IMG/VR virus record: IMGVR_UViG_3300037454_000603
Location: 1-15,645 of that record
DNA: 15,645 nucleotides
DNA from: a virus
Taxonomy: Duplodnaviria > Heunggongvirae > Uroviricota > Caudoviricetes
Direction: 5' to 3' (one strand)
The notes below the pieces were generated by a model. That model had not been told where the DNA came from and searched no databases. It saw only the letters and a list, made by a program, of their open reading frames with translations. A program made the translations under genes and the position numbers. Positions 783 through 13,740 of the stretch are shown piece after piece. Within the stretch, counting starts at the first letter, position 1, and each line of letters starts with the position of its first letter.

Positions 783-845
783 TGAAATACATTGTGCCGC
801 GACACCAATAACAAAATATGAACAGTGAAATGTGTTTGCATTTCA
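783..845 (+). repeat. composite boundary site J1
   Basis: TGAAAT 783, GCCGCGAC 796, palindrome 826-845 (N8). Confidence 0.85.
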
Positions 846-914
846 ATCTTAACAATTCCTTAATATTAAAATATCCAACCCCTATTTCAAAATTAATCTT
901 TTATTAAAAAAGAA

Positions 915-941
915 TAGGGGTTCAATTTAATTGAACCCCTA
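915..941 (-). terminator. intrinsic terminator
   Basis: 12-bp stem TAGGGGTTCAAT/ATTGAACCCCTA. Confidence 0.85.
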
Positions 942-947
942 ATTAAT

Positions 948-1190
948 TTACCAATCACATGGCATTTTATCATCGTCTATGTATTCACTATATCCAAGGC
1001 GGCATTTATCTCCATTATAAAACGGGCAGTTTTCACAATAATGTTCCTGACAAATTTCTTTAATATATGGAATAAATTCATTTATCTTTGTAATTATATC
1101 AAGCTTTTTCTCGTGTTCTAAACATTCATCAGCACTATTAAAAATTCTCCCATCACTTGCTTTGTATTTTTTAACCATAATCTCTTCCAT
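948..1190 (-). CDS. Cys-rich hypothetical protein (paralog of 151..387)
   Basis: ATG at 1190 chosen from SD AAGAGG (track start 1199 is TTG); YKASDGRIF...C-x4-C-x2-CPFY...C...PCDW. Confidence 0.85.
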   Translation of the reverse strand: MEEIMVKKYKASDGRIFNSADECLEHEKKLDIITKINEFIPYIKEICQEHYCENCPFYNGDKCRLGYSEYIDDDKMPCDW

Positions 1191-1300
1191 TAAAATCAAC
1201 CTCTTTTCTTAATCTTAGCAAAAGTTTTTCAGAATAGGGGTCACTATTGCAACCCCTTATCTTATCTTACCCAACATCTTAGGGTATAATCTTGAATGGT

Positions 1301-1390
1301 CTATCGTCCTCTTGTAAACCACTCAACAAGTCGAATTAGCCAATGCCTATCACCATACTTGCAACGAATTTTAAATAACAGATTTCTCAT
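1301..1390 (-). CDS. 29-aa small ORF MRNLLFKIRCKYGDRHWLIRLVEWFTRGR
   Basis: Not in the track; SD AAAGGCGG and promoter 1423-1451 immediately upstream; ends at TAG. Confidence 0.6.
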   Translation of the reverse strand: MRNLLFKIRCKYGDRHWLIRLVEWFTRGR

Positions 1391-1422
1391 TTATTCACCG
1401 CCTTTGCTCTTTTGTTATACTA

Positions 1423-1451
1423 AGTATAACATATAAATAGAAATTTGTCAA
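1423..1451 (-). promoter_or_regulatory. sigmaA-type promoter
   Basis: TTGACA-17-TATACT with TG extension. Confidence 0.85.
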
Positions 1452-1526
1452 GAGGTTTTTAAAAATTTCTTTGTAAACTATTTATTAAGTAGTTAGAAGA
1501 TTTAATTATTACAGAATTATTAAGAC

Positions 1527-1591
1527 TGAAATAGTTGGTCTGGCGGCGCGAGGTAAATAAATATGAACAATGAAATACCGTCCCTATTTCA
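1527..1591 (+). repeat. composite boundary site J2
   Basis: TGAAAT 1527, GGCGGCGC 1542, palindrome 1571-1591. Confidence 0.9.
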
Positions 1592-1655
1592 ACATTAACA
1601 ACTGCTTAATAATTAAAACAACTAACAAATTAATAAAAACTTGACATTTTAACCC

Positions 1656-1684
1656 TTGATTTTTAATATAATTTATGATATAAT
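1656..1684 (+). promoter_or_regulatory. sigmaA-type promoter
   Basis: TTGATT-17-TATAAT with TG extension; extra TTGACA at 1641. Confidence 0.75.
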
Positions 1685-1715
1685 TATTATAGAAAATAAG
1701 AAAAGGGGTGCTAAA

Positions 1716-1916
1716 ATGACTGAACCATTAAAACTTTCTCATGATGAATTGCTTAACTTATATCAGGACTGTATGCATTATGGTATAATTCATTATTGTG
1801 ATGATAAAGTTCATTGGAATGGAGATTTTGAAACTATTAAGTTATGCCGTTTAAAAGACAAAGTCTATTTATTCTCTTGTATTAATGGTGACGTGGAATC
1901 TGTAATTGAATGTTAA
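1716..1916 (+). CDS. hypothetical protein (66 aa)
   Basis: ATG 1716 after SD AAGGGGTG; the track start 1656 lies inside the promoter. Confidence 0.85.
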   Translation: MTEPLKLSHDELLNLYQDCMHYGIIHYCDDKVHWNGDFETIKLCRLKDKVYLFSCINGDVESVIEC

Positions 1917-1928
1917 AGAGGTGATTTA

Positions 1929-2030
1929 ATGCGATTTAAGATTATGTATTTTGTAAATCAGTTCTGGATATATGCTGATTTAATAGTAGGTTTTATTTAC
2001 AATACAATAATAGGAATAGGAGTGTTTTAA
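1929..2030 (+). CDS. 33-aa hydrophobic putative membrane peptide
   Basis: Not in the track; SD AAGAGGTG; MRFKIMYFVNQFWIYADLIVGFIYNTIIGIGVF; TAATG overlap with the next gene. Confidence 0.65.
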   Translation: MRFKIMYFVNQFWIYADLIVGFIYNTIIGIGVF

Positions 2031-2191
2031 TGGCAACAACAGTAACTAAGGGTGTAATTTATGTAGACAAGGACGGAAAACGTCATTTACTCAATCGTGA
2101 AGAATTTCACAATCTTATGGTTAAGTTGAACCGCAGAGCAAAAGCAATTCACAAAATGAAAGTTGTTGAACAGATAGAGATAGAGGATTAA
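2030..2191 (+). CDS. 53-aa hypothetical protein MATTVTKGVIYVDKDGKRHLL...
   Basis: Not in the track; SD AGGAG; coupled start; terminator overlaps the stop. Confidence 0.75.
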   Translation: MATTVTKGVIYVDKDGKRHLLNREEFHNLMVKLNRRAKAIHKMKVVEQIEIED

Positions 2192-2202
2192 TTCCTCTAT
2201 CT
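2178..2202 (+). terminator. intrinsic terminator
   Basis: 10-bp stem AGATAGAGGA/TCCTCTATCT. Confidence 0.75.
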
Positions 2203-2223
2203 TTATTAAGAGAATGTTAATAG

Positions 2224-2244
2224 TGAAATAGAGTTGGCATTTCA
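2224..2244. repeat. boundary palindrome J3
   Basis: TGAAAT-agagttggc-ATTTCA. Confidence 0.9.
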
Positions 2245-2332
2245 TTGTTCACATTTAAAACGTTCGTACTACATCTCATTGTTCATACGGCGTTAATAAT
2301 TAATTCTTTTAACTTATTCACAGAAAGTTTAC

Positions 2333-2361
2333 TTGACAATTTTTAAATTATATGTTATACT
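2333..2361 (+). promoter_or_regulatory. sigmaA-type promoter
   Basis: AAAGTTTAC-TTGACA-17-TATACT. Confidence 0.85.
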
Positions 2362-2395
2362 TAGTATAGAAAATTAAGAAAGGCGGTCGATTTAA

Positions 2396-2830
2396 TTGGC
2401 TAAAATTATTAACTTCGATATGGACGGCACTATTGCAAATTTGTATGGGGTTGACAATTGGTTAGATTATTTAATCAATAGCAATACTTATCCTTATGAA
2501 GTTGCAAAACCAATGGTTAATATGTCTTATCTTGCAAGACTTCTTAACCGATTAATTAACAAGGGATATTTAATTAATATAATCTCTTGGACTTCAAAAA
2601 ACGGCACTCCTGAATACAATGAAGCGGTTAAACAAGCAAAAATTAAGTGGTTAAAAACTCACTTAAAATCAGTTAATTTTTCAAACATTTACGTGATTCC
2701 ATACGGCACACCAAAACACACAATTTCAAGTGGTATTCTTTTTGATGATGAAGAACCAAACCGCATAAAATGGGGGAACGGTGCTTACACTGAAAAAGAA
2801 ATTTTCAAAGTTTTAAAGGCGATTGCATAA
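2396..2830 (+). CDS. HAD-superfamily phosphatase, 5'(3')-deoxyribonucleotidase-like
   Basis: Motif I FDMDGT, motif II ISWTS, K in motif III region, motif IV ILFDD; TTG start after SD GAAAGGCGG. Confidence 0.8.
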   Translation: MAKIINFDMDGTIANLYGVDNWLDYLINSNTYPYEVAKPMVNMSYLARLLNRLINKGYLINIISWTSKNGTPEYNEAVKQAKIKWLKTHLKSVNFSNIYVIPYGTPKHTISSGILFDDEEPNRIKWGNGAYTEKEIFKVLKAIA

Positions 2831-2839
2831 ATCGCCTTT
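2815..2839 (+). terminator. intrinsic terminator
   Basis: AAAGGCGATT/AATCGCCTTT plus T-tail. Confidence 0.85.
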
Positions 2840-2875
2840 TGTTTTTTCTTTTAACTATTAATTAAATGTGAACAC

Positions 2876-2942
2876 TGAAATAGTTCGGTGCCGCGGCACG
2901 ATGTAAACAGAATGTGAATATTGAAATACCCATCCTATTTCA
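2876..2942 (+). repeat. composite boundary site J4 (convergent junction)
   Basis: TGAAAT 2876, GCCGCGGC 2890, palindrome 2922-2942. Confidence 0.9.
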
Positions 2943-2957
2943 ATGTTAATAAATAAG

Positions 2958-2985
2958 AAAAGGTTCAGATAAAACTGAACCTTTT
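2958..2985 (-). terminator. intrinsic terminator
   Basis: AAAAGGTTCAG/CTGAACCTTTT. Confidence 0.85.
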
Positions 2986-2990
2986 ATACT

Positions 2991-3392
2991 TTAAATCAAA
3001 ACTCTATAACTATTCTTACTATCTCTAAACTGTTCAATATTATCATCGGCAATATTATAAACAGCATATAATCCTCTACAAGCTTCCCCAATGAACATAT
3101 ATTCCGTATCATCATAAAAGAATACGTCGCCGTTTTTCATTTCTGAAAGTTTTTTCATTTCGATGATAGTCGGTACTTCAAAGTCATAGCACCTTGTATA
3201 AGCGATTGCCACTCCTATTGTAAAATCAAAATCATCATCGGGGTGACATCTTGCTACACCAACTTTGCCTGTTGTTGTATCATAACAAATAGTTGCATTT
3301 GAGTTAGGAATAGTTCCTATATAGCAAGAACGATTTCTCTTTGCATGGTCATATGCTCTTTTTGCCCACTTATAAAATTCTTCTCTTGTCAT
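2991..3392 (-). CDS. hypothetical phage protein with GKVGxARxHPDD motif (paralog of 5453..5857)
   Basis: 133 aa; SD GGAGGG; the G-x-A-x-C-H-P-D-D...G-x-A-I-A motif is recalled from small phage families (T7 gp1.7 / N4 gp49-like), unverified. Confidence 0.85.
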   Translation of the reverse strand: MTREEFYKWAKRAYDHAKRNRSCYIGTIPNSNATICYDTTTGKVGVARCHPDDDFDFTIGVAIAYTRCYDFEVPTIIEMKKLSEMKNGDVFFYDDTEYMFIGEACRGLYAVYNIADDNIEQFRDSKNSYRVLI

Positions 3393-3445
3393 AATATCAA
3401 GTCCCTCCTAGTTTTTAAGAGTTTTCTTTCTCTTATCTTGGTATA

Positions 3446-3474
3446 ATTATAACACAAAACCCGCTTTTAGTCAA
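3446..3474 (-). promoter_or_regulatory. sigmaA-type promoter
   Basis: TTGACT-17-TATAAT. Confidence 0.85.
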
Positions 3475-3525
3475 TGAATTAATTGTTAATTTTTCTTTAA
3501 AATATTGTGAACACTTTGTTACTGT

Positions 3526-3546
3526 TGAAATCGTAGCACTATTTCA
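3526..3546. repeat. boundary palindrome J5
   Basis: TGAAAT-cgtagcact-ATTTCA. Confidence 0.9.
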
Positions 3547-3600
3547 ATGTTCACATAACGTTAATAATTAATTCTTTTAATCAATTCATAAAAAGTTTAC

Positions 3601-3629
3601 TTGACAAATTCAGAAATATATGTTATACT
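3601..3629 (+). promoter_or_regulatory. sigmaA-type promoter
   Basis: AAAGTTTAC-TTGACA-17-TATACT. Confidence 0.85.
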
Positions 3630-3685
3630 ATATACAGAAGATAAGGAAAGACCTTATCAAATAAAAAGAAAGAGAGTGATTTTAA

Positions 3686-3889
3686 ATGATTACAATTGAA
3701 GTAGTTGACTGGTATGACGGTGACAGAGAGGTTATAGGCATAGCACATTCTTTTAGTGAAGCCGCGGCAATTCGTAACGCAAGATATGAAGATACTGATG
3801 ATGAAGCTGATGTTAATTGCTATATGGGCGGTGAATGTGTAGACCACATTGTATCACTTTATAGTCCTTGTGATGATGAAGATTATTAA
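3686..3889 (+). CDS. small highly acidic protein
   Basis: 67 aa, 18 D/E versus 3 R and no K; own promoter and terminator. Confidence 0.85.
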   Translation: MITIEVVDWYDGDREVIGIAHSFSEAAAIRNARYEDTDDEADVNCYMGGECVDHIVSLYSPCDDEDY

Positions 3890-3913
3890 AAGAGAGGGCG
3901 TAAGCCTTCTCTT
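3890..3913 (+). terminator. intrinsic terminator
   Basis: AAGAGAGGGC/GCCTTCTCTT plus T-tail. Confidence 0.8.
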
Positions 3914-3933
3914 TTTTAACATTCTTTAAACGA

Positions 3934-3954
3934 TGAAATCTGGACGACATTTCA
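3934..3954. repeat. boundary palindrome J6 (convergent junction)
   Basis: TGAAAT-ctggacgac-ATTTCA between two terminators. Confidence 0.9.
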
Positions 3955-3970
3955 TTATTCATAATTAAGA

Positions 3971-3997
3971 AAAGAGTTGAGATAAACTCAACTCTTT
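3971..3997 (-). terminator. intrinsic terminator
   Basis: AAAGAGTTGAG/CTCAACTCTTT. Confidence 0.85.
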
Positions 3998-4374
3998 TTA
4001 ACGATATTTATTCCCTTTTCAACTAAGTACTGAATTGCAAGTTCATTTTTTGAATAGTTCAAGATTTGATTAATAGAAACATTTTCAGCTTTTGTATAAT
4101 AAGTCTTTAATAAAATTCGTGTAGTATCATTCTTCCACTGTTTAAGCGGTTTAATGTATCTATTCCACAAATTAAAATGAATAACTTTTCCTTTTTTCTT
4201 ATTTTGAGAATAAAAGCCATAACACCCGCTAAATTTTTCTACATTTGCCCAAGTAACTACTTCCGTTTCCTCTACACTACTTTCTTTTTCATCAATAATT
4301 ACTAACCATGAATCAGACCGTACTTCTTCATCATTAAAATAAGTATCCTTGTGTTTGTAATAGCAACCCAACAT
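3988..4374 (-). CDS. hypothetical protein
   Basis: 128 aa; SD GAAAGGA; promoter 4412-4440; terminator overlaps the TGA stop. Confidence 0.85.
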   Translation of the reverse strand: MLGCYYKHKDTYFNDEEVRSDSWLVIIDEKESSVEETEVVTWANVEKFSGCYGFYSQNKKKGKVIHFNLWNRYIKPLKQWKNDTTRILLKTYYTKAENVSINQILNYSKNELAIQYLVEKGINIVKKS

Positions 4375-4411
4375 TTAAATCAAGTCCTTTCTTAATCTTT
4401 ATTGTACTTAC

Positions 4412-4440
4412 ATTATACCACATTAATTCCATTTTGTCAA
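4412..4440 (-). promoter_or_regulatory. sigmaA-type promoter
   Basis: TTGACA-17-TATAAT. Confidence 0.85.
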
Positions 4441-4479
4441 CCCCTTTCTCAAACTTAATTGTAAACATTTTATTACGAC

Positions 4480-4545
4480 TGAAATACCGTCTATATTTCA
4501 TCGTTCACAATTTAAGTTAATCTCGCGCCGCCGTACTATATTTCA
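4480..4545 (-). repeat. composite boundary site J7 (reversed)
   Basis: Palindrome 4480-4500, GCGCCGCC 4525, ATTTCA 4540. Confidence 0.9.
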
Positions 4546-4609
4546 GTATTCACACTACGTTAATAATTAAATCACTTAACCAATTAACAAAAACTTAAAT
4601 AAATAACTA

Positions 4610-4638
4610 TTGACTTTTAATATAATTTATGGTATAAT
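4610..4638 (+). promoter_or_regulatory. sigmaA-type promoter (upstream of tandem pair)
   Basis: TTGACT-17-TATAAT. Confidence 0.8.
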
Positions 4639-4728
4639 ATATTCAGAAAAGAAAAAGAGAACAGAAAAAATCAGAAACCAAACTGAGAGATTTGGTTAAG
4701 TAAAAAAACAAATTAAAAAAAAGTTTAC

Positions 4729-4757
4729 TTGACAAAATCGAAAAAATATGGTATAAT
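4729..4757 (+). promoter_or_regulatory. sigmaA-type promoter (downstream of tandem pair)
   Basis: AAAGTTTAC-TTGACA-17-TATAAT. Confidence 0.85.
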
Positions 4758-4855
4758 AAATGTAGAAAAGAGAGAGAGAGAGAAAACAAAACAAAATCCA
4801 TAACAACCAAACTGAAAGTCAGCCGTAGACGTTAAAACGGAGAAAGTAGGTAAAT

Positions 4856-5275
4856 ATGGCAAACGTAACTGGCACTAACACTGAGAACAAGGCAATGACC
4901 ACAAGAGAGTTCTACACCGCTGTCATCAATGCAAATGTGGCTGAGGACGTAACCAAGTTCGCAGAGAACGCACTCGCAAAGCTCGATGAAAAGAACGCAA
5001 AGAGAAAGGCTGAGGGTAGCAAGACCGCTAAGGAAAACGTAGCTATCAAGGCAAATCTTGTTGCCGCTATGGAAAAGGGCGTTACTTACACTGCCGCAGA
5101 ACTGTTCGCACTGGGCGTTGAGGGTGTAACTTCCACACAGAAAGCAAGCGCACTGATTCGTCAGGTAGTTAAGACGGGTGAAGCGGTTGAGAGTGAAATC
5201 AAGATAAAGGGCAAGGGTAAGGTCAAGGGTTACACTCTTGTTACTTCTGAGGACGACGAAACCGTTGAGGAATAA
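4856..5275 (+). CDS. putative DNA-binding protein: coiled-coil N-terminus plus winged helix-turn-helix (paralog of 6938..7345)
   Basis: TYTAAEL...STQKASALIRQVVKTG...KGKVKGYTL matches a wHTH helix-turn-helix plus beta wing pattern; codon choice (TTC, AAC, AAG) differs from neighbours. Confidence 0.8.
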   Translation: MANVTGTNTENKAMTTREFYTAVINANVAEDVTKFAENALAKLDEKNAKRKAEGSKTAKENVAIKANLVAAMEKGVTYTAAELFALGVEGVTSTQKASALIRQVVKTGEAVESEIKIKGKGKVKGYTLVTSEDDETVEE

Positions 5276-5280
5276 AAAGA

Positions 5281-5298
5281 GAGGGGCATTTGCCCCTT
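5281..5298 (+). terminator. intrinsic terminator
   Basis: GAGGGGC/GCCCCTT plus long T-tail. Confidence 0.85.
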
Positions 5299-5352
5299 TT
5301 CTTTTTTCTTTTAATTTGTTAAAATTTTTAACTATTAACCAATTATGAACAC

Positions 5353-5418
5353 TGAAATAGTTGGTGCCGCGGCGCAATGTAAATAGAATATGAACGTTGA
5401 AATGCTAATTCAATTTCA
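5353..5418 (+). repeat. composite boundary site J8 (convergent junction)
   Basis: TGAAAT 5353, GCCGCGGC 5366, palindrome 5398-5418. Confidence 0.9.
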
Positions 5419-5440
5419 TTATTAACATTTTTATAATAAA

Positions 5441-5468
5441 GAAAATGTCCGATTATTCGGACATTTTC
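5441..5468 (-). terminator. intrinsic terminator
   Basis: 12-bp stem GAAAATGTCCGA/TCGGACATTTTC. Confidence 0.8.
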
Positions 5469-5857
5469 ACATCAATCATTTCAAATAGTATCGGACTATC
5501 ATTCCATGTGAGATATTCAGAATGTGATATCAAATCTACAACTTGATTATTACAGTTTTTGCCAATATAACGGTATTTCTCACCACGCCAGAGAAAAACT
5601 TCTCCATTTTTCATCTCACAAAGTCTTTTATATACCGTGAGTTTAGGAAACTCTTTACCTGTACAACGGCAGTAAGCAAGAGCAATACCGTAATCTCTTA
5701 TTTTTTCATCATCGGGGTGAAGTCTTGCCATGCCCACTTTGCCGTTTCTCTCGTTTACTACAAAAGTATAAACATCTCTTGTAATAACTCTATACTTGTC
5801 GCGGTTGATACTGTCCGCAGTCTTGTGTACCCAGTCAAGCAGTTCATTTTTGTTCAT
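5453..5857 (-). CDS. hypothetical phage protein with GKVGxARxHPDD motif (paralog of 2991..3392)
   Basis: 134 aa; shares GKVG.AR.HPDD, IA.AY.RC and EMKNG.VF with 2991..3392. Confidence 0.85.
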   Translation of the reverse strand: MNKNELLDWVHKTADSINRDKYRVITRDVYTFVVNERNGKVGMARLHPDDEKIRDYGIALAYCRCTGKEFPKLTVYKRLCEMKNGEVFLWRGEKYRYIGKNCNNQVVDLISHSEYLTWNDSPILFEMIDVKMSE

Positions 5858-5909
5858 AATTTTAATTCCTTTCTGGTTTTTAGAGTTTTCCTTCTCTTAT
5901 CTTGATTAT

Positions 5910-5938
5910 ATTATAACACATATTCATCGAATTGTCAA
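5910..5938 (-). promoter_or_regulatory. sigmaA-type promoter
   Basis: TTGACA-17-TATAAT. Confidence 0.85.
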
Positions 5939-5984
5939 TAGGTTTTTTTCAATTTTATTTGTAAACTATTTATGAATATGTTGC

Positions 5985-6037
5985 GCCGCGGCACTTATGG
6001 AATAATTATGAACAGTGAAATACTGTCCCCTATTTCT
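5985..6037 (+). repeat. degenerate composite site J9
   Basis: GCCGCGGC 5985; TGAAAT-N10-ATTTCT 6016-6037. Confidence 0.75.
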
Positions 6038-6114
6038 AAATTAATATTTTGTTAAAATAGGCAAAATCACCAAACTTTACTCTTATTTTTGTACAATTTT
6101 TTATAAAAAAGTTA

Positions 6115-6143
6115 TTGACATTTTTATTATTATATGATATAAT
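6115..6143 (+). promoter_or_regulatory. sigmaA-type promoter
   Basis: TTGACA-17-TATAAT with TG extension. Confidence 0.85.
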
Positions 6144-6293
6144 ATATATAGAGAAAAGGAAGAGGGAAAGAGAGGGAAACGGGACTGCCCTTGTAAAAAA
6201 ATACTTTTCCGACCCATTAAGGCGCCACAACGGGGAACACTGGCTTAACCCTTGACTATTCTCTATTAATAATATTTGAAAGGAATTGATTCT

Positions 6294-6692
6294 ATGAGTT
6301 ACGAAAGAATAACAACCATTTTTGACGGTATAGCAATCCCCGAAGAAATTATTTTAAGTAATGTTTTAGATGATTTTATCAACAAAACCAAAACTAAGGT
6401 AGAAATATTCGACCGTTGTATAGCATATCATAGTATTTACCCTCATGAGTTGAACGGAGATTGGCTTGAGGAGTATTTAAGAGATATGGGATATATTGTT
6501 TTTGATGAATATATGTCTTACCTTTATCTTGGTAGAAGTATTATGTCAGTCGGAGATGATACGGGTACTTGCTCTTTAATAATGGATAACTTGCCCAATT
6601 TTCCTGATTACACTTCTGAAATTGACGAGTTGATTAAATTAGTTTTCCCCGACTACGAACCACATAGATATCTTATAAATTGGTATCTTTGA
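6294..6692 (+). CDS. acidic hypothetical protein
   Basis: ATG 6294 after SD GAAAGGA (track start 6276 is TTG); terminator 6700-6727. Confidence 0.85.
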   Translation: MSYERITTIFDGIAIPEEIILSNVLDDFINKTKTKVEIFDRCIAYHSIYPHELNGDWLEEYLRDMGYIVFDEYMSYLYLGRSIMSVGDDTGTCSLIMDNLPNFPDYTSEIDELIKLVFPDYEPHRYLINWYL

Positions 6693-8100: not shown

Positions 8101-8124
8101 TCTTTTTGAAGTAATTGTTAACAA

Positions 8125-8145
8125 TGAAATACCAACCCCATTTCT
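8125..8145. repeat. boundary palindrome J12 (one mismatch)
   Basis: TGAAAT-accaacccc-ATTTCT. Confidence 0.8.
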
Positions 8146-8215
8146 GTAGTTACAATTCCTTAATATTTATTTTACAAAATCTTTATAAAAAATACAAGAA
8201 ATAATCCTTTTTTTC

Positions 8216-8224
8216 TGTTATAAT
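8216..8224 (+). promoter_or_regulatory. extended -10 promoter, no recognisable -35
   Basis: TGTTATAAT about 33 bp upstream of ATG 8257. Confidence 0.6.
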
Positions 8225-8256
8225 AAATATAAAGAAAACAAAAGGAGTTGTTTAAA

Positions 8257-8484
8257 ATGAAAGAAAAAATCTTTGAAAACTTAGGGTATGTAGGTTTAGC
8301 AGGGCTAATAATTGCACAATGTATCATTGGTAAATGGTACATTGCAGGTCAGGCAACTTATTTGCTTTGTAATTTAATTTTTCTGTCAAGGTCTTTCATA
8401 CTTAAAAGACCAGTAGCGGATAAGATTAAAGACAGTTCATGTACAGCAATTACAATTGGTTTAATTTTACTTGCATTAAGATAG
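8257..8484 (+). CDS. small membrane protein, about 3 hydrophobic segments
   Basis: ATG 8257 after SD AAGGAG; three hydrophobic stretches; ends at TAG. Confidence 0.8.
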   Translation: MKEKIFENLGYVGLAGLIIAQCIIGKWYIAGQATYLLCNLIFLSRSFILKRPVADKIKDSSCTAITIGLILLALR

Positions 8485-8496
8485 GGGGATTTAAAA

Positions 8497-8673
8497 ATGA
8501 ATAGATATTATTTAAGTTTTGTATGCTTAGAAACTGATTATGAATATGGCTTTACCGCGACTTGTGAAAATACAACAGAAGCAATATCAATTGTTAGAGA
8601 TAAGCTTTTTGAAATGTTAACCGCAGTACTCCCAAAAGTTACATTAGTTCTAAAAGATTTAATAATTTGTTAA
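8497..8673 (+). CDS. 58-aa hypothetical protein MNRYYLSFVCLETDYEYGF...
   Basis: Not in the track; SD AGGGGG; terminator at the stop. Confidence 0.75.
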   Translation: MNRYYLSFVCLETDYEYGFTATCENTTEAISIVRDKLFEMLTAVLPKVTLVLKDLIIC

Positions 8674-8696
8674 GAGTTGAGATTTTCTCAACTCTT
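8672..8696 (+). terminator. intrinsic terminator
   Basis: AAGAGTTGAG/CTCAACTCTT. Confidence 0.85.
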
Positions 8697-8713
8697 TTCT
8701 TATTTATGAACGA

Positions 8714-8819
8714 TGAAATCCCTTCCCTATTTCATTATTCACAATTTTTCAATACCTTGTGCCGCCTTACTAAATTTCAGCGTTCACAATTCAGACAAAT
8801 ATGAATATGTTGCCGCGGC
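8714..8819 (-). repeat. composite boundary site J13 (reversed) plus extra GC box
   Basis: Palindrome 8714-8734, GCCGCC 8761, ATTTCA 8774, second GCCGCGGC 8812-8819. Confidence 0.9.
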
Positions 8820-8854
8820 GCAACAAATTAACAAAGAGTTTACAATTATATCCC

Positions 8855-8883
8855 TTGACAAATTGATGAATATAGTGTATAAT
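8855..8883 (+). promoter_or_regulatory. sigmaA-type promoter
   Basis: TTGACA-17-TATAAT. Confidence 0.85.
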
Positions 8884-8962
8884 ATATATGTAAGGTACAG
8901 AAAGACAATGCAATACGGCATAAATCTAAACTGTATCAAAAACTGAAAGGAATGATATAAAA

Positions 8963-9703
8963 ATGAGTAGTAAATTTATGGTTCTTGACGTTGAGGGTTA
9001 TTCGGCTTGCCGTCCATATGATATCGGCTTTAAAGTTACCGATAAAAGCGGAAAGACTTTTGAAGAACATTCCGTAGCAATAATGCCTGCTACATTTGAG
9101 AATATGTGCTATAAAGCAGACAAAGCACTTGTTAAAGGTTTGTCGGGCGCACACGAGATGGCACACCGCAACATTGAAGAAATATGCAACGATACACAGG
9201 ACAAATATATTAAATGCTTTGACATAGATAAGTTCTATTTTGCATTTGTTGCTATTATTCAAAAGTACAATATTAAAAGGATATGGGCGTACAATTGCAG
9301 TTTTGACAAAGCCGCATTAAATAGGCTTTTCGGTGATGAAAAGTTCGGCGTTATAAATTCAATGGTTGAATTTTGTGATATAATTCCTGCAATACTTCAC
9401 ACAAAATTGCTGAATAAAGAATACATCGACTTTTGTAAGAAAAATAAGTTTATAACTGAAAAAGGTAACATTCAGACAAAAGCAGAAGTCGTTTACAAAT
9501 TCTTAACAGGAAATTTAAATTTTGAAGAAGAACATACTGGACTTGCCGACGTTCAGATTGAAACAGAAATTTTGCTTACTGCCATGAGAGAAAGTAAGAA
9601 TGTAAAGCGCAAGCCTTGCCAAGCATGGAAAATTATTAGAGAATTTTGCGTAGTTAATGACATTGAACTTCCAACAGTAAGTTTTGAAGAAATGATGAAT
9701 TAG
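8963..9703 (+). CDS. DEDDh-family 3'-5' exonuclease
   Basis: ExoI VLDVEG, ExoII AYNCSFD, ExoIII EHTGLADV. Confidence 0.9.
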   Translation: MSSKFMVLDVEGYSACRPYDIGFKVTDKSGKTFEEHSVAIMPATFENMCYKADKALVKGLSGAHEMAHRNIEEICNDTQDKYIKCFDIDKFYFAFVAIIQKYNIKRIWAYNCSFDKAALNRLFGDEKFGVINSMVEFCDIIPAILHTKLLNKEYIDFCKKNKFITEKGNIQTKAEVVYKFLTGNLNFEEEHTGLADVQIETEILLTAMRESKNVKRKPCQAWKIIREFCVVNDIELPTVSFEEMMN

Positions 9704-9710
9704 TTAAAAG

Positions 9711-9733
9711 ACCGCCCGCAATTCACGGGCGGT
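9711..9733 (+). terminator. intrinsic terminator
   Basis: ACCGCCCG/CGGGCGGT. Confidence 0.8.
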
Positions 9734-9758
9734 TCATTTTTGAACGTAGTGTGAATAC

Positions 9759-9824
9759 TGAAATAGTTGGTGCCACGGCACAATATTACCCAAATGTTAA
9801 CAACGAAATGCCATCCATATTTCA
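9759..9824 (+). repeat. composite boundary site J14 (convergent junction)
   Basis: TGAAAT 9759, GCCACGGC 9772, CGAAAT-N9-ATTTCA 9804-9824. Confidence 0.85.
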
Positions 9825-9840
9825 TCGTTCACAAATAAGA

Positions 9841-9865
9841 AAAGGTTCAGAATATCTGAACCTTT
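9841..9865 (-). terminator. intrinsic terminator
   Basis: AAAGGTTCAGA/TCTGAACCTTT. Confidence 0.85.
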
Positions 9866-9868
9866 CTT

Positions 9869-10069
9869 TTACCTATTATACCAGACCTTTTTATTATTGT
9901 GGTCTATTATAATATTGCCCCTGTTTGCTTTTGTATCTCCTAAGCAAACTCTCATAGCTTCCTCAATATATTGAGATTCTCTATTCCACGAGATACAAGG
10001 CGGGTTAACGATAACATGATAGCCTTTGAATTTTTCTTTAAAAACTTCACCAATTGTTTTGTTTGACAT
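9869..10069 (-). CDS. hypothetical protein
   Basis: 66 aa; SD GAAAGG; second gene of a two-gene unit. Confidence 0.8.
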   Translation of the reverse strand: MSNKTIGEVFKEKFKGYHVIVNPPCISWNRESQYIEEAMRVCLGDTKANRGNIIIDHNNKKVWYNR

Positions 10070-10084
10070 AACATCACTGCCTTT

Positions 10085-10285
10085 CTAACTTAAATCTGCA
10101 TAAAAGTTCTTGTATATTACGTAGGGACGTTCTTCTAACTGTAACATAATCAATTCAACTTCACAATCTTTTAAGTTGGGATAATATAACTTTAAATGCT
10201 CTTCTACTGCCTGAACTGCTTTTACCCATGAAGAGTAAGATTTAATTATAGTAACTCCATCGTATTGAATACATATGCTTTGCAT
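10085..10285 (-). CDS. hypothetical protein
   Basis: 66 aa; SD GAAAGGA within the shared leader module. Confidence 0.8.
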   Translation of the reverse strand: MQSICIQYDGVTIIKSYSSWVKAVQAVEEHLKLYYPNLKDCEVELIMLQLEERPYVIYKNFYADLS

Positions 10286-10338
10286 AATATCAAATCCTTT
10301 CTAGTTTTTAAGAGTTTTCTTTCTCTTGTCTTGACTAT

Positions 10339-10367
10339 ATTATAACATATAAATGTTGATTTGTCAA
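10339..10367 (-). promoter_or_regulatory. sigmaA-type promoter
   Basis: TTGACA-17-TATAAT. Confidence 0.85.
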
Positions 10368-10397
10368 GAGGTTTAATTGTAAATTATTTATATACGT

Positions 10398-10418
10398 TGA
10401 AATATTATCTCTATTTCA
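10398..10418. repeat. boundary palindrome J15
   Basis: TGAAAT-attatctct-ATTTCA. Confidence 0.9.
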
Positions 10419-10442
10419 TTATTCATATTTTATTTAAAAAGA

Positions 10443-10463
10443 AAAGAGGGCATAGCCCTCTTT
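10443..10463 (-). terminator. intrinsic terminator
   Basis: AAAGAGGGC/GCCCTCTTT. Confidence 0.85.
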
Positions 10464-10467
10464 ATTT

Positions 10468-10917
10468 TTATTCTATTTTAATATTTTTAATCTGTCCCGC
10501 AAAAAGTTTTTCACAAGAAAGTTCCTGAATTATATCTGTTATTTCATGAAAATCATTTGAATAGAGATTAGGTTCAATTGTTATTCCGTTTACTAACTGA
10601 ATTTTGATTTTAAACTTTTGAGAACTATTACTTGCGGTTTTCTTTTCTTTATTATGATATGCGTTAAATTCATAAAAAAGTGCGGCAGGAAGACAATTTT
10701 CGTTAATGGGTCTATATAAGCAATCATAAGCATCATATTGATAATAACAACTTTCCGCTTCTTTCAGAAGTGCAGTTTCATGTTCTGTACCCTCTTCCGT
10801 AATCCACTTAATTGCGTCTTCATATCCCTTTTCATTGAATATAACTAAATATATTGCGTTTTCAGCATATTCCACAGGATTATAAGAATCATTGTATGCC
10901 TTAAAATTTTCAAACAT
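10468..10917 (-). CDS. two-domain hypothetical protein (C-terminal domain similar to 11210..11617)
   Basis: 149 aa; shared leader module; own promoter and terminator. Confidence 0.85.
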   Translation of the reverse strand: MFENFKAYNDSYNPVEYAENAIYLVIFNEKGYEDAIKWITEEGTEHETALLKEAESCYYQYDAYDCLYRPINENCLPAALFYEFNAYHNKEKKTASNSSQKFKIKIQLVNGITIEPNLYSNDFHEITDIIQELSCEKLFAGQIKNIKIE

Positions 10918-10972
10918 AACATCAAGTCCTTTCTAGTTTTTTTAAGAGTTTTCTTTCTCTTATCTTGATTAT

Positions 10973-11001
10973 ATTATAGCATATTTAGGGGAATAAGTCA
11001 A
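10973..11001 (-). promoter_or_regulatory. sigmaA-type promoter
   Basis: TTGACT-17-TATAAT. Confidence 0.85.
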
Positions 11002-11041
11002 TTAATTATTTGTATTTATTTTATTGCTAAATTGTGAACTT

Positions 11042-11093
11042 GCGCCAGCACAATGTTAACCAAATATGAATGATGAAATACCACTCTATTTCG
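11042..11093 (+). repeat. degenerate composite site J16
   Basis: GCGCCAGCACAATGT 11042; TGAAAT-N8-ATTTCG 11074-11093. Confidence 0.8.
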
Positions 11094-11147
11094 TCGTTTA
11101 CATAGTATTAATATTTAAAATTCTTAACTAATTAATAAAATATTTAC

Positions 11148-11176
11148 TTGACAAAATGAGATTTATATGTTATACT
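11148..11176 (+). promoter_or_regulatory. sigmaA-type promoter
   Basis: TTGACA-17-TATACT. Confidence 0.85.
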
Positions 11177-11209
11177 ATATATAGAAAATAAAGAAAGGTG
11201 GTCATAAAT

Positions 11210-11617
11210 ATGGCTTATAAAATGTTTGATAAAAATTTTGAGGAAATTTCTATTGATGGTGAATGGCGTTATCTTTATGTTACAGACTGGGAAGATTTTG
11301 TAGAAGAATTCGGCGATACATGGATTCTGGAAGGCATTTTTGAAGATGGTGTTTATGAGTATGATGATTACTATGAGAAGTGGTCAGAACTTGCAGAAAA
11401 CTCTTTTGCTTATAAAGAAATTTTAAAAAGAGTTTCAAATAGTGTTGAAAATACTAAGAAAAGATGGGGTATTGTTGTAACACTTGATACTGGCGAAAAG
11501 ATTAAAACTAATATAGTTCCCGTTTCAATAGAAGATGTACAGGAAGCAATTGGTGTACTGGTTAAACCTAGTATTCTTGGAATGAGAATAAAAAGTATAG
11601 AAATAGTTACGGAGTAA
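11210..11617 (+). CDS. two-domain protein with acidic aromatic N-terminus
   Basis: ATG 11210 after SD GAAAGGTGG. Confidence 0.85.
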   Translation: MAYKMFDKNFEEISIDGEWRYLYVTDWEDFVEEFGDTWILEGIFEDGVYEYDDYYEKWSELAENSFAYKEILKRVSNSVENTKKRWGIVVTLDTGEKIKTNIVPVSIEDVQEAIGVLVKPSILGMRIKSIEIVTE

Positions 11618-11626
11618 TCCGTAACT
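11605..11626 (+). terminator. intrinsic terminator
   Basis: AGTTACGGA/TCCGTAACT plus T-tail. Confidence 0.85.
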
Positions 11627-11648
11627 TTTTTGAACTAAATATGAACAC

Positions 11649-11714
11649 TGAAATACTTTCCTATTTCATCATTAACATTTTGTTAAATAACTTGCGCCGC
11701 CTTACCATATTTCA
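11649..11714 (-). repeat. composite boundary site J17 (reversed)
   Basis: Palindrome 11649-11668 (N8), GCGCCGCC 11694, ATTTCA 11709. Confidence 0.9.
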
Positions 11715-11768
11715 GACTTAACATTTCATTAATAATTAAATGCTTTGACCAATTCACAAAAAGTTTAC

Positions 11769-11797
11769 TTGACAAATTCCGATTTTTAGTGTATAAT
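11769..11797 (+). promoter_or_regulatory. sigmaA-type promoter
   Basis: AAAGTTTAC-TTGACA-17-TATAAT. Confidence 0.85.
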
Positions 11798-11829
11798 ATA
11801 GTTAAAGAAAACGAAAGGAAGTGCTTTTA

Positions 11830-12192
11830 ATGGCAAGATATGATGATTTAAACGAATTTAAGAACGAACGTGAGAAAATGAACGCAATCCGTGAGAGAGT
11901 ATCAAAAGTAATCTATGAGAGAATCAAACCAGAGTTCGGTGAAGAATTTGTGCGTTACATTCCTAAAGATATTGGAATAACACCAAATGCTTCTAAGGTT
12001 GCCAAGTATACCGTAGTTGCGGACGTTGGTGATGTAAAGGACAATGGCGGGTGTGATGTCGGAGTATGTGTAGAAATCACAGTCAAGGTCAAAAAGTGGA
12101 ATACTGTTGAAACCAAATCGGACAAAATAACATACGGTATAACACTTGATGATTATGACATTGAGTTAGAAGAGGAAAAAGAGGGGGAATAA
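11830..12192 (+). CDS. hypothetical protein
   Basis: ATG 11830 after SD GAAAGGA; weak similarity to 14564..14944. Confidence 0.85.
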   Translation: MARYDDLNEFKNEREKMNAIRERVSKVIYERIKPEFGEEFVRYIPKDIGITPNASKVAKYTVVADVGDVKDNGGCDVGVCVEITVKVKKWNTVETKSDKITYGITLDDYDIELEEEKEGE

Positions 12193-12201
12193 CCCCTCTT
12201 T
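12178..12201 (+). terminator. intrinsic terminator
   Basis: AAAGAGGGG/CCCCTCTTT plus T-tail. Confidence 0.85.
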
Positions 12202-12222
12202 TTTTGAACGAAATATGAACGT

Positions 12223-12290
12223 TGAAATGGAGATGGTGCCGCGGCGCAATGTTAACTAGATATTAATAGTGAAATATCAATCATATTTCA
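12223..12290 (+). repeat. composite boundary site J18
   Basis: TGAAAT 12223, GCCGCGGC 12238, palindrome 12270-12290. Confidence 0.9.
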
Positions 12291-12344
12291 TCGTTCATAT
12301 TTTGCCAATAATTAAAAGTTTAAACTTATTAATAAAAAGTTTAC

Positions 12345-12373
12345 TTGACAAATTCTAGTTTTTAGTGTATAAT
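12345..12373 (+). promoter_or_regulatory. sigmaA-type promoter (near-copy of 11769)
   Basis: AAAGTTTAC-TTGACA-17-TATAAT. Confidence 0.85.
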
Positions 12374-12401
12374 ATAGTTAAAGAAAAGGAGTTGAGTATC
12401 A

Positions 12402-12569
12402 ATGAAATTTAAAGAATACGTCGAAGGAGTAAAGAAAATGTTAGAAGAACACCCTGATTGGGGTGAATTAGAAATGACACAAGTAGAAAGGTGGGAAGGA
12501 GAGGACGTTTGTTTGCCTTGGCATGAAGAACCTTTTATGAGTTTTGAAGATGGAAGAATATATCTTTAA
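12402..12569 (+). CDS. 55-aa acidic protein MKFKEYVEGVKKMLEEHPDWGELEM...
   Basis: Not in the track; SD AAGGAG; directly after promoter 12345-12373. Confidence 0.85.
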   Translation: MKFKEYVEGVKKMLEEHPDWGELEMTQVERWEGEDVCLPWHEEPFMSFEDGRIYL

Positions 12570-12592
12570 TAATTGAAAAGGAGAGATTTAAA

Positions 12593-12778
12593 ATGGCAAC
12601 TTACACAGTAAATTTCGCACAGTGGTTTCCCTATGAGGTAGAAGCAGATAGTCCCGAAGAAGCAATCAATATAGCGCACGAAGATTTTGTTCAGAATATG
12701 TATAGAGCAGTAGTAACCACAGATTATGATGAGGTAATAGTTGAAGATGAAGACGGCAAAGAAGTAGTACACTATTGA
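12593..12778 (+). CDS. small acidic protein with EVEADSPEEA motif
   Basis: 61 aa, 15 D/E versus 2 K/R; SD AAGGAG. Confidence 0.85.
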   Translation: MATYTVNFAQWFPYEVEADSPEEAINIAHEDFVQNMYRAVVTTDYDEVIVEDEDGKEVVHY

Positions 12779-12789
12779 GTGTACTACTT
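12762..12789 (+). terminator. intrinsic terminator
   Basis: AAGTAGTACACT/AGTGTACTACTT plus T-tail. Confidence 0.85.
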
Positions 12790-12812
12790 TTTTATTAACA
12801 GAATATGTCCGA

Positions 12813-12833
12813 TGAAATACCAACCCAATTTCA
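12813..12833. repeat. boundary palindrome J19
   Basis: TGAAAT-accaaccca-ATTTCA. Confidence 0.9.
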
Positions 12834-12916
12834 TCCTTCACACCCTCTTAATAATTAAAAGTCTTAACCAATTAATAAAATTTTAACTTTAAATCCCTTA
12901 CCAGTTAACATTTATC

Positions 12917-12925
12917 TGTTATAAT
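12917..12925 (+). promoter_or_regulatory. extended -10 promoter, degenerate -35
   Basis: TGTTATAAT; only TTACCA-like sequence near the -35 position. Confidence 0.6.
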
Positions 12926-12970
12926 AATAATGTACTTAAAGAGTACAATAAATATTAAGGAGTTGTTACA

Positions 12971-13627
12971 ATGATAAAGAAAAATTATTATTTGATGTTG
13001 GACACGGAAACGGCAGGAAGTCTTAATAAACCATTAGTTTATGATATTGGCTTGGCAATAATCGACCGTAAAGGAAAAATTTACAAGTCTTATTCTCTTG
13101 TAATTTCAGAAATCTTTTACGGAGAAAAAGACCTCATGAAGTCAGCCTATTATGCCAAAAAAATTCCAATGTATTTAGATCATATTAAACAAGGTAAAAA
13201 AACCGTTACAAGTTTTTGGCAAATGAAACGACTTATTGAAAAGCTTTTCACGCTTTACAACATTAAAGCGGTGGTTGCCCATAATGCAAGTTTTGACATT
13301 AAAGCACTTAACAATACAATTAGCTTTTTATCTAATGGAAGTGAAAAATTTTTCTTTGATAGTAATGTCAATATTTGGTGTACTCTTGCTATGGCAAGGA
13401 GTACAATTTGCAAACAGCCAACTTATATAAAGTGGTGTAAAGAACACGGTTATTATTCGCGGAGAGGGGCGAGGGCAACGGCAGAAATTTTGTATAGGTT
13501 TATTAGTGGCAACAATAGTTTCATTGAATACCATACGGGATTGCAGGATGTTTTAATTGAAAAAGAAATTTTTGTTAGGTGTATGAGACAGCATAAGAAA
13601 ATGAACAAAAACCCAGTTAATTGGTAG
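12971..13627 (+). CDS. DEDDh-family 3'-5' exonuclease (paralog of 8963..9703)
   Basis: ExoI MLDTETAG, ExoII AHNASFD, ExoIII YHTGLQDV. Confidence 0.9.
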   Translation: MIKKNYYLMLDTETAGSLNKPLVYDIGLAIIDRKGKIYKSYSLVISEIFYGEKDLMKSAYYAKKIPMYLDHIKQGKKTVTSFWQMKRLIEKLFTLYNIKAVVAHNASFDIKALNNTISFLSNGSEKFFFDSNVNIWCTLAMARSTICKQPTYIKWCKEHGYYSRRGARATAEILYRFISGNNSFIEYHTGLQDVLIEKEIFVRCMRQHKKMNKNPVNW

Positions 13628-13631
13628 AATT

Positions 13632-13655
13632 TAAGTGGCGAGAAATTGCCACTTA
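13632..13655 (+). terminator. intrinsic terminator
   Basis: TAAGTGGC/GCCACTTA plus T-tail. Confidence 0.8.
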
Positions 13656-13674
13656 TTTCTTTTTTTATTAATAT

Positions 13675-13740
13675 TGAAATAGTTGGTGTCGCGGCACAAT
13701 GTTAACCAATTGTAAATGTAGAAATAGTTGCACTATTTCA
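13675..13740 (+). repeat. composite boundary site J20
   Basis: TGAAAT 13675, GTCGCGGC 13688, AGAAAT-N9-ATTTCA 13720-13740. Confidence 0.85.

Follow-up and report, generated by a model that had tools for sequence, protein, structure and literature searches.

An oriented composite site at the cassette seams of a block of small phage genes and its possible role as a two-factor docking site

Large phages keep fast-evolving host-takeover and anti-defence functions in blocks of tiny early genes, and the organisation and reshuffling of such blocks are known only in outline, for the promoter-early stem-loops (PeSLs) of T4-type phages. Here we ask what marks the boundaries of the small genes in bases 1–15,645 (the window) of IMGVR_UViG_3300037454_000603 (G000), a 178,943-bp IMG/VR virus record from the Caudoviricetes that has a GC content of 32.5% and is 100% complete according to CheckV. 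The window contains ~22 small transcription units in both orientations; pattern scans found 11 perfect TTGACA-17-TATAAT promoters, 12 more with 11 of 12 positions matched, and 38 terminator-like hairpins where 7 were expected. The intergenic regions share a repeated element that joins TGAAAT half-sites to a GC-rich box, and a first-pass annotation of the sequence described it as a three-part composite with fixed internal spacing. This element is the subject of our analysis.

The core of the element is a pair of inverted 13-bp half-sites, TGAAY-NN-TGAAAT, around a semi-conserved spacer of 8–10 bp. The pattern TGAAAT-N9-ATTTCA, allowing up to one mismatch, matches 19 times in the window against 0.43 expected; its matches at 10526 and 14305 lie inside open reading frames (ORFs) and have no outer arms, and it misses five real cores with an 8- or 10-bp spacer (826, 6016, 11074, 11649, and 14474). 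The 13-bp half-site TGAAC-NN-TGAAAT has 34 matches against ~1 expected, and genome-wide it is found only from ~175.3 kb through the end of the record to ~15.8 kb of the circularly assembled record, which delimits a 20-kb block that is probably expressed early. Of the window's 22 transcription-unit boundaries, 21 have a full core (5 convergent, 5 divergent, and the others tandem) and the last has only a lone half-site, and in the related contig L177 all 21 boundaries have a core; no core lies within an operon in either sequence. All five convergent terminator–terminator junctions, which have no promoter, carry a core (2922, 3934, 5398, 9804, and 14474), and three of them carry the full composite. 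At the other junctions the cores are 23–91 bp upstream of the −35 element and never overlap a promoter. Because cores occur at every type of boundary and at variable distances from the −35 element, the core marks the seams between cassettes rather than promoters or terminators. Inverted 13-bp half-sites enclose every cassette. Six plus-strand cassettes share a conserved upstream block in which the distance from the end of the reversed half-site to TTGACA is exactly 48 bp. No two core spacers in the window are identical, and the two cores that flank a cassette differ at most spacer positions. Seams that consist of the core alone are located at 25–59, 3519–3553 (divergent, with its right arm ending 48 bp before the −35 element at 3601), 3927–3961 (convergent), 6740–6774, 7390–7424 (where L177 has an extra cassette between two cores), 8118–8152, 10391–10425, 12806–12840, and 14467–14502 (convergent, 10-bp spacer).

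Ten of the 22 cores in the window (~40%) carry a one-sided arm that comprises a third half-site, in direct repeat with the core hexamer of the same orientation, and a GCGGC(G/A)C box. Seven of these composites read forward, on the plus strand. J1 (776–852) has its third half-site at 776–788, a GC box at ~792–805 (GTGCCGCGACAC), and a core with an 8-bp spacer at 819–852, and J2 (1520–1598), between divergent promoters, has these elements at 1520–1532, 1543–1549 (GCGGCGC), and 1564–1598. The GC box includes a palindrome in J4 (2869–2949; convergent and promoterless), where the third half-site at 2869–2881 is followed by GTGCCGCGGCAC at 2888–2899 and the core at 2915–2949. The convergent junctions J8 (5346–5425) and J14 (9752–9831) have third half-sites at 5346–5358 and 9752–9764, boxes GTGCCGCGGCGC at 5364–5375 and GTGCCACGGCAC at 9770–9781, and cores at 5391–5425 and 9797–9831, respectively. 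J18 (12216–12297) again has GTGCCGCGGCGC, at 12236–12247, between a third half-site at 12216–12228 and a core at 12263–12297, and J20 (13668–13747) has GTGTCGCGGCAC at 13686–13697 between 13668–13680 and the core at 13713–13747. The remaining three composites are reversed, with the core first and the box on the minus strand: J7 (4473–4552; core 4473–4507, GCGGCGC 4525–4531, third half-site 4540–4552), J13 (8707–8786; core 8707–8741, GCGGCAC 8759–8765, third half-site 8774–8786), and J17 (11642–11721; core with an 8-bp spacer 11642–11675, GCGGCGC 11694–11700, third half-site 11709–11721, ending 48 bp before the −35 element at 11769). An extra GC palindrome, TGTTGCCGCGGCGCAA, is present at 8808–8823 between J13 and the promoter at 8855.

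Measured from the core hexamer of the same orientation, the third half-site is 43, 44, 46, 45, 45, 45, 45, 46, 47, and 45 bp away at cores 826, 1571, 2922, 4480, 5398, 8714, 9804, 11649, 12270, and 13720, respectively. GCGGC begins 29 bp before the core hexamer at 2922, 5398, 9804 (where it is ACGGC), 12270, and 13720 and 27–32 bp before it elsewhere, and the composite as a whole is 77–82 bp long, with exactly 80 bp in seven of ten cases. The counts agree with what the first-pass annotation had given for both spacings, including the 29-bp value at J4, J8, J14, J18, and J20, and with its assignment of J7, J13, and J17 as reversed and the other seven as forward. The arm lies on the terminator side in five composites and on the promoter side in five. 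Three more junctions have partial composites: J3 (2217–2285, reversed; core 2217–2251, third half-site TGAACAATGAGAT at 2273–2285) has a decayed GC box, and J9 and J16 have no TGAAAT third half-site. J9 (5950–6044, plus strand) has TAAAC-N6-TGAAT followed by GCGCCGCGGCAC at 5983–5994 and a core with a 10-bp spacer at 6009–6044, and is an example of a second grammar, of the TGAAT-N6-TGAAC type, that the window uses upstream of some minus-strand promoters; J16 (11028–11100, plus strand) has TGAAC, then a GC box (TTGCGCCAGCACAA), and then a core with an 8-bp spacer at 11067–11100.

What the arm adds can be seen from the position of the third half-site, which takes the place that the core arm has at plain junctions, either directly behind the terminator or with exactly 48 bp between it and the −35 element downstream. 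The third half-site is the cassette's own terminal half-site, and the arm therefore behaves as a 45-bp unit (the GC word plus one half-site) between the cassette end and the seam. In five cassettes (C1, C3, C7, C13, and C17) an arm lies immediately inside the core at either end; at one end of C1 and of C3 this arm is degenerate and has no GC box. The alternative that the arm is an empty mini-cassette in which the GC box represents a degenerate inverted half-site was set aside, as the GC word occurs independently throughout the genome and GCGGCRC has no counterpart in the half-site. Two 3′–5′ exonuclease-like paralogues of DnaQ type (phrog_20187, with a weak Rv2179c-like match) are located in separate cassettes, one of which (8963–9703) has arms at both ends and the other (12971–13627) an arm at its terminator end.

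The GC box had been described as a feature of these junctions, and in this respect the description was too narrow because the word is over-represented across the genome. The 12-bp palindrome GYGCCGCGGCRC (up to one mismatch) has 27 copies in the genome, 19 of them outside the block (for example at G000 positions 36290, 40846, 89700, 121018, 132153, 150466, and 161838), against ~0.03 expected from base composition, and GCCGCGGC is the commonest GC-only 8-mer of the genome. Maximal-order Markov ratios are only 1.0–1.6 per step, so that the excess accumulates across all word lengths. Ten of the outside copies fall within long ORFs and are read there as Ala-Ala(-Ala), which is also how most coding copies in the relative G001 are read. 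The 12-mer has 12–14 copies in each of the relatives G001–G003 and G006, where controls have 0–3, and only 0–3 copies in G004, G005, and G007. Six Clostridia genomes of 1.3–4.7 Mb (including a Ruminococcus metagenome-assembled genome; the true host of the phage may differ) contain 0–7 exact copies, with neither the 12-mer nor the 10-mer GGCGGCRCAA enriched over controls. The 10-mer is strand-biased, with 2 forward and 13 reverse copies here and 13 and 2 in G001 (controls 0), a bias that is close to the coding-strand bias. A literature search for the GC 12-mers returned unrelated primers only. The GC box is a clade-wide phage word that the junctions recruit at a fixed distance from the half-sites, and this combination of a genome-wide word with fixed spacing fits the involvement of a second factor.

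To determine whether the geometry is conserved, relatives of the window are needed, and these were reached only via proteins: homologues of the window's 139-aa protein led to L177 (SRR28341240), L178 (ERZ27270735), and L343 (SRR30535856), contigs from other samples with ~75–85% DNA identity to the window. Core, third half-site, and GC box are all present in the three contigs. We combined the cores of this genome's block with those of L177 and L178 into a set of 66 cores. Among TGAAAT hexamers of the same orientation within 120 bp of a core, 27 of 37 are at 42–47 bp, with 13 at exactly 45 bp, whereas opposite-orientation TGAAAT shows no distance peak, and 22 of the 24 GC cores are at 27–32 bp. 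The spacing is therefore non-random in this larger set as well, and the box itself is conserved in related genomes, the two points on which the first-pass annotation had made its proposal depend. At orthologous junctions of the four genomes the third half-site and the core hexamers are at least 90% identical, compared with 30–60% identity for the core spacer and 40–90% for the GC box. Two alleles of the box interchange at orthologous junctions, palindromic GGTGCCGCGGCRC and single GGTA[A/T]GGCGGCRC; by this comparison the palindrome is optional and GCGGC(G/A)C the invariant part. CCGCGG, which had been named as part of the box, is confined to the palindromic allele.

Exact-pattern scans for the core gave only single chance matches in IMG/VR and, among the matches listed, in JGI metagenomes and GTDB genomes; megablast against the phages collection gave no match; and an exact look-up of three window proteins returned only contigs of run SRR12681651, with the same gene order.

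A repeated palindrome could act as a hairpin or as a protein site. The 37-nt core folds with a mean minimum free energy of −5.3 kcal/mol, compared with −13.5 kcal/mol for the TGGGAC-type palindromes of relatives described below. Of 7 positions, only 3.8 are complementary between its outer arms, which are also anti-correlated: 45 of the 66 cores pair one TGAAY with one T[T/A]AAY against 32.6 expected. The GC box folds no better than its shuffles (z = −0.36), and the sites match no Rfam family. A hairpin or RNA element was rejected on these results. The core hexamers are nearly invariant beside a freely varying spacer, and this together with the weak fold and the anti-correlated arms argues for recognition of double-stranded DNA by a protein.

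We tentatively favour the reading that two factors dock at the composite, on double-stranded DNA, and that the site marks the seams between cassettes, and give it somewhat less than an even chance. The composite would be an oriented site of ~80 bp at which at least two proteins dock, placed at the seams between autonomous cassettes that each have their own promoter, gene(s), and terminator. A lineage-specific DNA-binding protein would read the half-sites as three protomers or pairs, a second factor would read the GC word that is used genome-wide in the phage clade, and the two would assemble into a higher-order complex by which cassette ends are marked, insulated, or looped and the whole block is governed. 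In favour of this reading are the confinement of the half-site to the block, the single core at each boundary, the conservation of hexamers beside a variable spacer, the lack of a hairpin, the constant geometry over 66 cores, the presence of the composite in three related contigs, the lineage-specific palindromes, the separate GC word, and the turnover of cassettes at the seams. The first-pass annotation had likewise suggested that more than one factor assembles here, by analogy with resolvase res and Xer cer/psi sites. Its first part fits two elements at fixed spacing, one confined to the block and the other genome-wide, with the third half-site conserved like the core hexamers and the spacer not. 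The analogy with res or Xer sites is not supported: the genome has no tyrosine, serine, Y1, rve, or IS110-type recombinase gene, the spacers that flank a cassette differ, the spacer is 8–10 rather than 6–8 bp, and the arm is a single half-site plus a GC word where another inverted pair of subsites would be needed.

Several observations weigh against a two-factor docking site. Binding, looping, and insulation are all functions that we infer from the DNA, and no binding protein was identified among the window proteins. The 23–91 bp spread between core and −35 element excludes a single regulatory geometry. The GC box is only moderately conserved and has decayed at J14 in L178 and L343 and at J4 in L178, and the whole arm is missing at J8 in L177, where the window has exactly 45 extra bp flanked by a direct half-site repeat; the arm is therefore dispensable at single junctions. 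L302, a 178-kb contig of the GTTAAA type (see below) with 51% protein identity, retains the three-part grammar around a different palindrome, with a GC-rich box and GTTCATAAATTATTCAT (TGAAT-N6-TGAAC on the other strand), and this conservation speaks for the docking reading; its box, 12–15 bp long, is variable in sequence, however, so that the role of the box could be physical rather than sequence-specific.

The protein content of the window offers few candidates for a reader. In a Pfam scan of 28 window proteins only an NT5C-like nucleotidase scored above the cut-off; weaker matches were obtained for the two exonuclease-like paralogues and for two winged-helix-like paralogues (phrog_19455), and the remaining proteins have no Pfam family, which again counts against the docking reading. 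The winged-helix-like proteins, of 139 and 135 aa, are the only DNA-binding-like family of the block and were considered as readers of the core. This candidate was rejected, which also tells against the docking reading: the putative recognition helix STQKASALLRQ is invariant across lineages that have different palindromes, and the family is therefore not the specific reader. The two genes are at 4856–5275 and 6938–7345, have weak MarR/HTH matches, and belong to a family of 426 homologues with the invariant helix and a KGKGKVKGY wing. The gene at 4856–5275 has tandem consensus promoters (4610 and 4729), purine-rich leaders, and raised GC and, to judge from these features, is probably very highly expressed.

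The palindromes of the wider clade were identified from relatives with the winged-helix-like protein (120–140 aa), for which we fetched the stretches L048–L055, L302–L309, L316, L317, L321, and L322. These stretches contain at least six other recurrent palindrome types, of which only the TGGGAC and GTTAAA/ATGTAA types were read in place: TGGGACGT-N3-ACGTCCCA; GTTAAA-N3-TTTAAC, together with ATGTAAACGATTACAT; GTTAGT-N4-ACTAAC; TTAGACG-N5-CGTCTAA; TATACGT-N3-ACGTATA; and CGAACA-N2-TGTTCG, which resembles the Gram-positive SOS box. Such lineage-specific palindromes are expected if each co-evolves with a specific binding protein. Relatives of the TGGGAC type have neither the third half-site nor the GC box.

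Enzymes that could act on the sites were searched for in the 179-kb genome. Tyrosine recombinase (PF00589) is absent, with the control search positive in 14 of 14 genomes, as are serine resolvase (PF00239), Y1_Tnp (PF01797), rve (PF00665), the IS110 DEDD domain (PF01548), and ParB (PF02195), and no RecA/UvsX-like or RecT-like gene was found. No phage-encoded C5 (PF00145) or N4/N6 (PF01555) methyltransferase was found either, which leaves methylation of the box by a phage enzyme unsupported.

The contigs L177 and L178 also show how the seams are used. L177 has four additional cassettes, one encoding an AAA-ATPase, one encoding a 71-aa protein, and two others; every insert has a core on either side, and the pair aligns to one and the same window core (4480, 7397, or 2224). 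It has no C8 or C9. In L178, C8 is located elsewhere and C15 and C16 are swapped in order with their orientation kept. The resolution of these breakpoints is limited by the ~80% identity between the window and its relatives. Conserved seams are the places where relatives gain, lose, and reorder cassettes. This pattern would also fit composites that are passive, PeSL-like repeats, paralogous regulatory DNA spread and homogenised by homologous recombination and gene conversion, in which the fixed spacing was inherited from an ancestral 80-bp unit and a dedicated binder does not exist. Several features agree with such an origin: the exact 45-bp arm indel between direct half-site repeats described above, GC-box variants that are lineage-specific and common to paralogous copies (GCCGCGGC here, GCCGGC in L178), clearly paralogous promoter-upstream blocks with the identical 48-bp spacing in six cassettes, and the like behaviour of the PeSLs of T4-type phages (PMC2839356). 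However, gene conversion alone cannot account for hexamers of 6 bp that hardly vary on either side of 9 bp that vary freely; cores also occur at convergent junctions that have no promoter module, the G/W asymmetry of the arms is non-random, and the genome lacks a detectable RecA/UvsX-like or RecT-like gene. We consider passive repeats an unlikely explanation, albeit one with an appreciable chance of being right.

It is less probable still that the cores are early-gene operators, bound by a dimeric repressor or activator near early promoters, with the third half-site and GC box providing cooperativity and the placement at seams being incidental. In TGGGAC-type relatives the palindrome is ~10 bp upstream of every −35 element, six window cassettes have the reversed half-site exactly 48 bp upstream of theirs, and the lineage-specific palindromes recall the diversification of immunity-type operators. 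Set against this are the cores at all five promoterless convergent junctions, three of them with the full composite, the 23–91 bp distances without any overlap of a promoter, and the even division of arms between terminator and promoter sides; no regulator was identified among the window proteins.

Below this we place site-specific recombination, which we regard as improbable. The core would be the crossover site of an att-, attI-, or res-like platform whose recombinase belongs to a family not yet recognised, and the arm would bind extra protomers and an accessory factor. C1, C3, C7, C13, and C17 have the arrangement core + arm ... arm + core, like attL ... attR, which L178 retains for C7, C13, and C17; the L177 insertions lie exactly at cores, with the core duplicated; and the directly repeated third half-site recalls the yeast Flp recombination target (FRT) and DR1/DR2 of attI1. 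The same low probability applies to a broader version, in which the composites are att-like sites of a cassette-exchange platform in a virulent phage, a functional counterpart of the integron that depends on a recombinase or nuclease from a family likewise unrecognised so far. That enzyme would bind the half-sites, and an accessory or architectural factor would occupy the GC word found across the genome; arms would belong to anchor cassettes, and the variable bays between these cassettes would take up new host-takeover genes. No enzyme of the tyrosine, serine, Y1-HUH, rve, or IS110 type is encoded in the genome, the two cores that flank a cassette have spacers that differ at most positions, and the spacer length of 8–10 bp is likewise unfavourable.

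Least probable of all is that the GC word is a Chi-like polar signal that stops a host exonuclease entering at core breaks, starts recombination, and protects the arm-bearing cassette: words of the GCGGC(G/A)C type are GC-rich, over-represented genome-wide, and strand-biased as 10-mers, RecA and RecT were not found in the phage, and in 10 of 10 composites the orientation of the word puts the arm-holding cassette on the protected side by the Chi direction rule, but the six Clostridia genomes (from which the true host may differ) show no enrichment of the 12-mer or 10-mer, the strand bias is near the coding-strand bias, and the palindromic 12-mer is longer than any known Chi.

Other features of the window were observed in the course of this analysis. 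The ends of the record overlap by ~174 nt, so that the assembly closes on itself, and the IMG/VR label is linear; the overlap (window 1–100 and G000 178770–178943) has one poly-G length difference, 8 versus 9 G. One possibility is that the block is the collapsed form of a long terminal repeat like those of SPO1- or T5-like phages. At one edge of the block, window positions 15030–15645 and the sequence that continues to ~16200 in G000 form a ~1.2-kb non-coding region that is dense in short repeats, including GTTAAAAGATTTAAC-like words, which resemble the seam palindrome of the GTTAAA-type relatives, and CATCACCTAAT(C/T)GCGGCGGCTTT, which is present twice. It is a candidate for an origin, a terminus, or one edge of a terminal repeat; a search for bracket repeats common to both block edges gave nothing convincing. 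The long leader of ~150 nt (6144–6293) that separates the consensus promoter at 6115 from the start codon at 6294 has a higher GC content than the DNA around it and may be structured; it matches no Rfam family. Gene splits that are not found in relatives occur at 9869–10285 (minus strand) and 8257–8673: ORFs of 75 and 58 aa in the window correspond to a single 138-aa gene in a near-identical Logan contig, and a 148-aa minus-strand gene, cut by a contig end, begins at the start of the window's first 66-aa ORF. L177 has no second 66-aa gene and lacks its promoter and core 10398.

With respect to the question raised at the outset, this phage clade has a different solution from the T4-type phages, namely a lineage-specific seam word that resembles a protein site and is separate from promoter and terminator, to which one lineage adds an arm that joins the seam word to a genome-wide GC word. 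If binding factors are found, they would give a handle on how some 25 very strong promoters packed head to head are controlled or insulated, and on whether the exchange of cassettes is catalysed or simply follows from that control. With three half-sites and one GC word in a defined geometry of 80 bp, the question is directly testable.

Several known systems share parts of this organisation. Repetitive extragenic palindromic (REP) sequences and the bacterial interspersed mosaic elements built from them are, like the composites, intergenic mosaics with palindromic units in both orientations and intervening motifs. However, REPs are GC-rich hairpins that are spread across the whole chromosome by Y1 transposases of the REP-associated (RAYT) type, whereas here there is no Y1 gene and no stable hairpin, and the half-sites are confined to one 20-kb block. 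Transposons and miniature inverted-repeat transposable elements are comparable in that each cassette is bounded by inverted 13-bp half-sites, but the phage has no rve, Y1, or IS110-type transposase, and the cassettes have no identical duplications, with different spacers on either side. The operators of KorB (OB) and KorA (OA) in RK2 and of C1 in P1 are short palindromes at many places of a replicon, sometimes with the site of a second factor at fixed spacing, and the GC word is similarly present both at seams and genome-wide; in contrast to those systems, no ParB/KorB-like gene or cognate regulator was identified here, and many copies of the GC word are in coding sequence.

Recombination sites offer closer parallels in layout. 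The res sites of Tn3/γδ and the Xer sites cer and psi resemble the composites in having accessory DNA in fixed phase with a core, which implies that more than one protein binds. A res site consists of three inverted pairs next to the gene for a serine resolvase; in cer and psi, ArgR/PepA or ArcA/PepA bind an accessory stretch of ~180 bp, and the central region is 6–8 bp long. None of these specific features occurs here, where one inverted pair is accompanied by one single half-site. The integron site attI1 comprises a simple site plus the direct repeats DR1 and DR2, and yeast FRT two inverted and one direct 13-bp element, so that both share with the composite an inverted pair with a one-sided direct copy, as well as a position at cassette edges. 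They differ in that the phage has no tyrosine recombinase and its 8–10 bp spacer is not shared by partner sites, so that the identical 6–8 bp central region common to sites of this class (att, attI/attC, FRT, and Xer) is absent; in addition, the third element is 45 bp away with the GC word between, and the cassettes carry their own promoters in both directions. The attC site differs in a further respect, as it is a single-strand hairpin with R″/R′ and L″/L′ pairing in which structure is conserved, whereas in the composite the arm sequence is conserved and pairing is not.

The closest described system is that of the PeSL cassettes of T4-type phages (Arbiol et al. 2010, PMC2839356; Comeau et al. 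2014, PMC4122927), although a promoter and stem-loop within the repeat are not found here. A PeSL combines a sigma70-type early promoter, with its AT-rich upstream region, and a stable stem-loop that acts as a terminator, and recombination between PeSLs yields mini-circles, whereas the seam site consists of weakly pairing inverted 13-bp half-sites around a variable spacer, with the promoters 23–91 bp from the core and separate intrinsic terminators. The core is also present at promoterless convergent junctions, and ~40% of its copies add the third half-site and the GC word. In both systems small ORFan genes, each with its own sigma70-type promoter and terminator, lie between copies of an intergenic repeat in a plastic region of the genome of a large lytic phage. 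Neither system encodes a dedicated recombinase, and related phages differ in the cassettes that are inserted, deleted, or replaced at the repeats; in L177 and L178 the ORFan cassettes are, as in the T4-type phages, bounded by motifs at the end-points of insertions and deletions.

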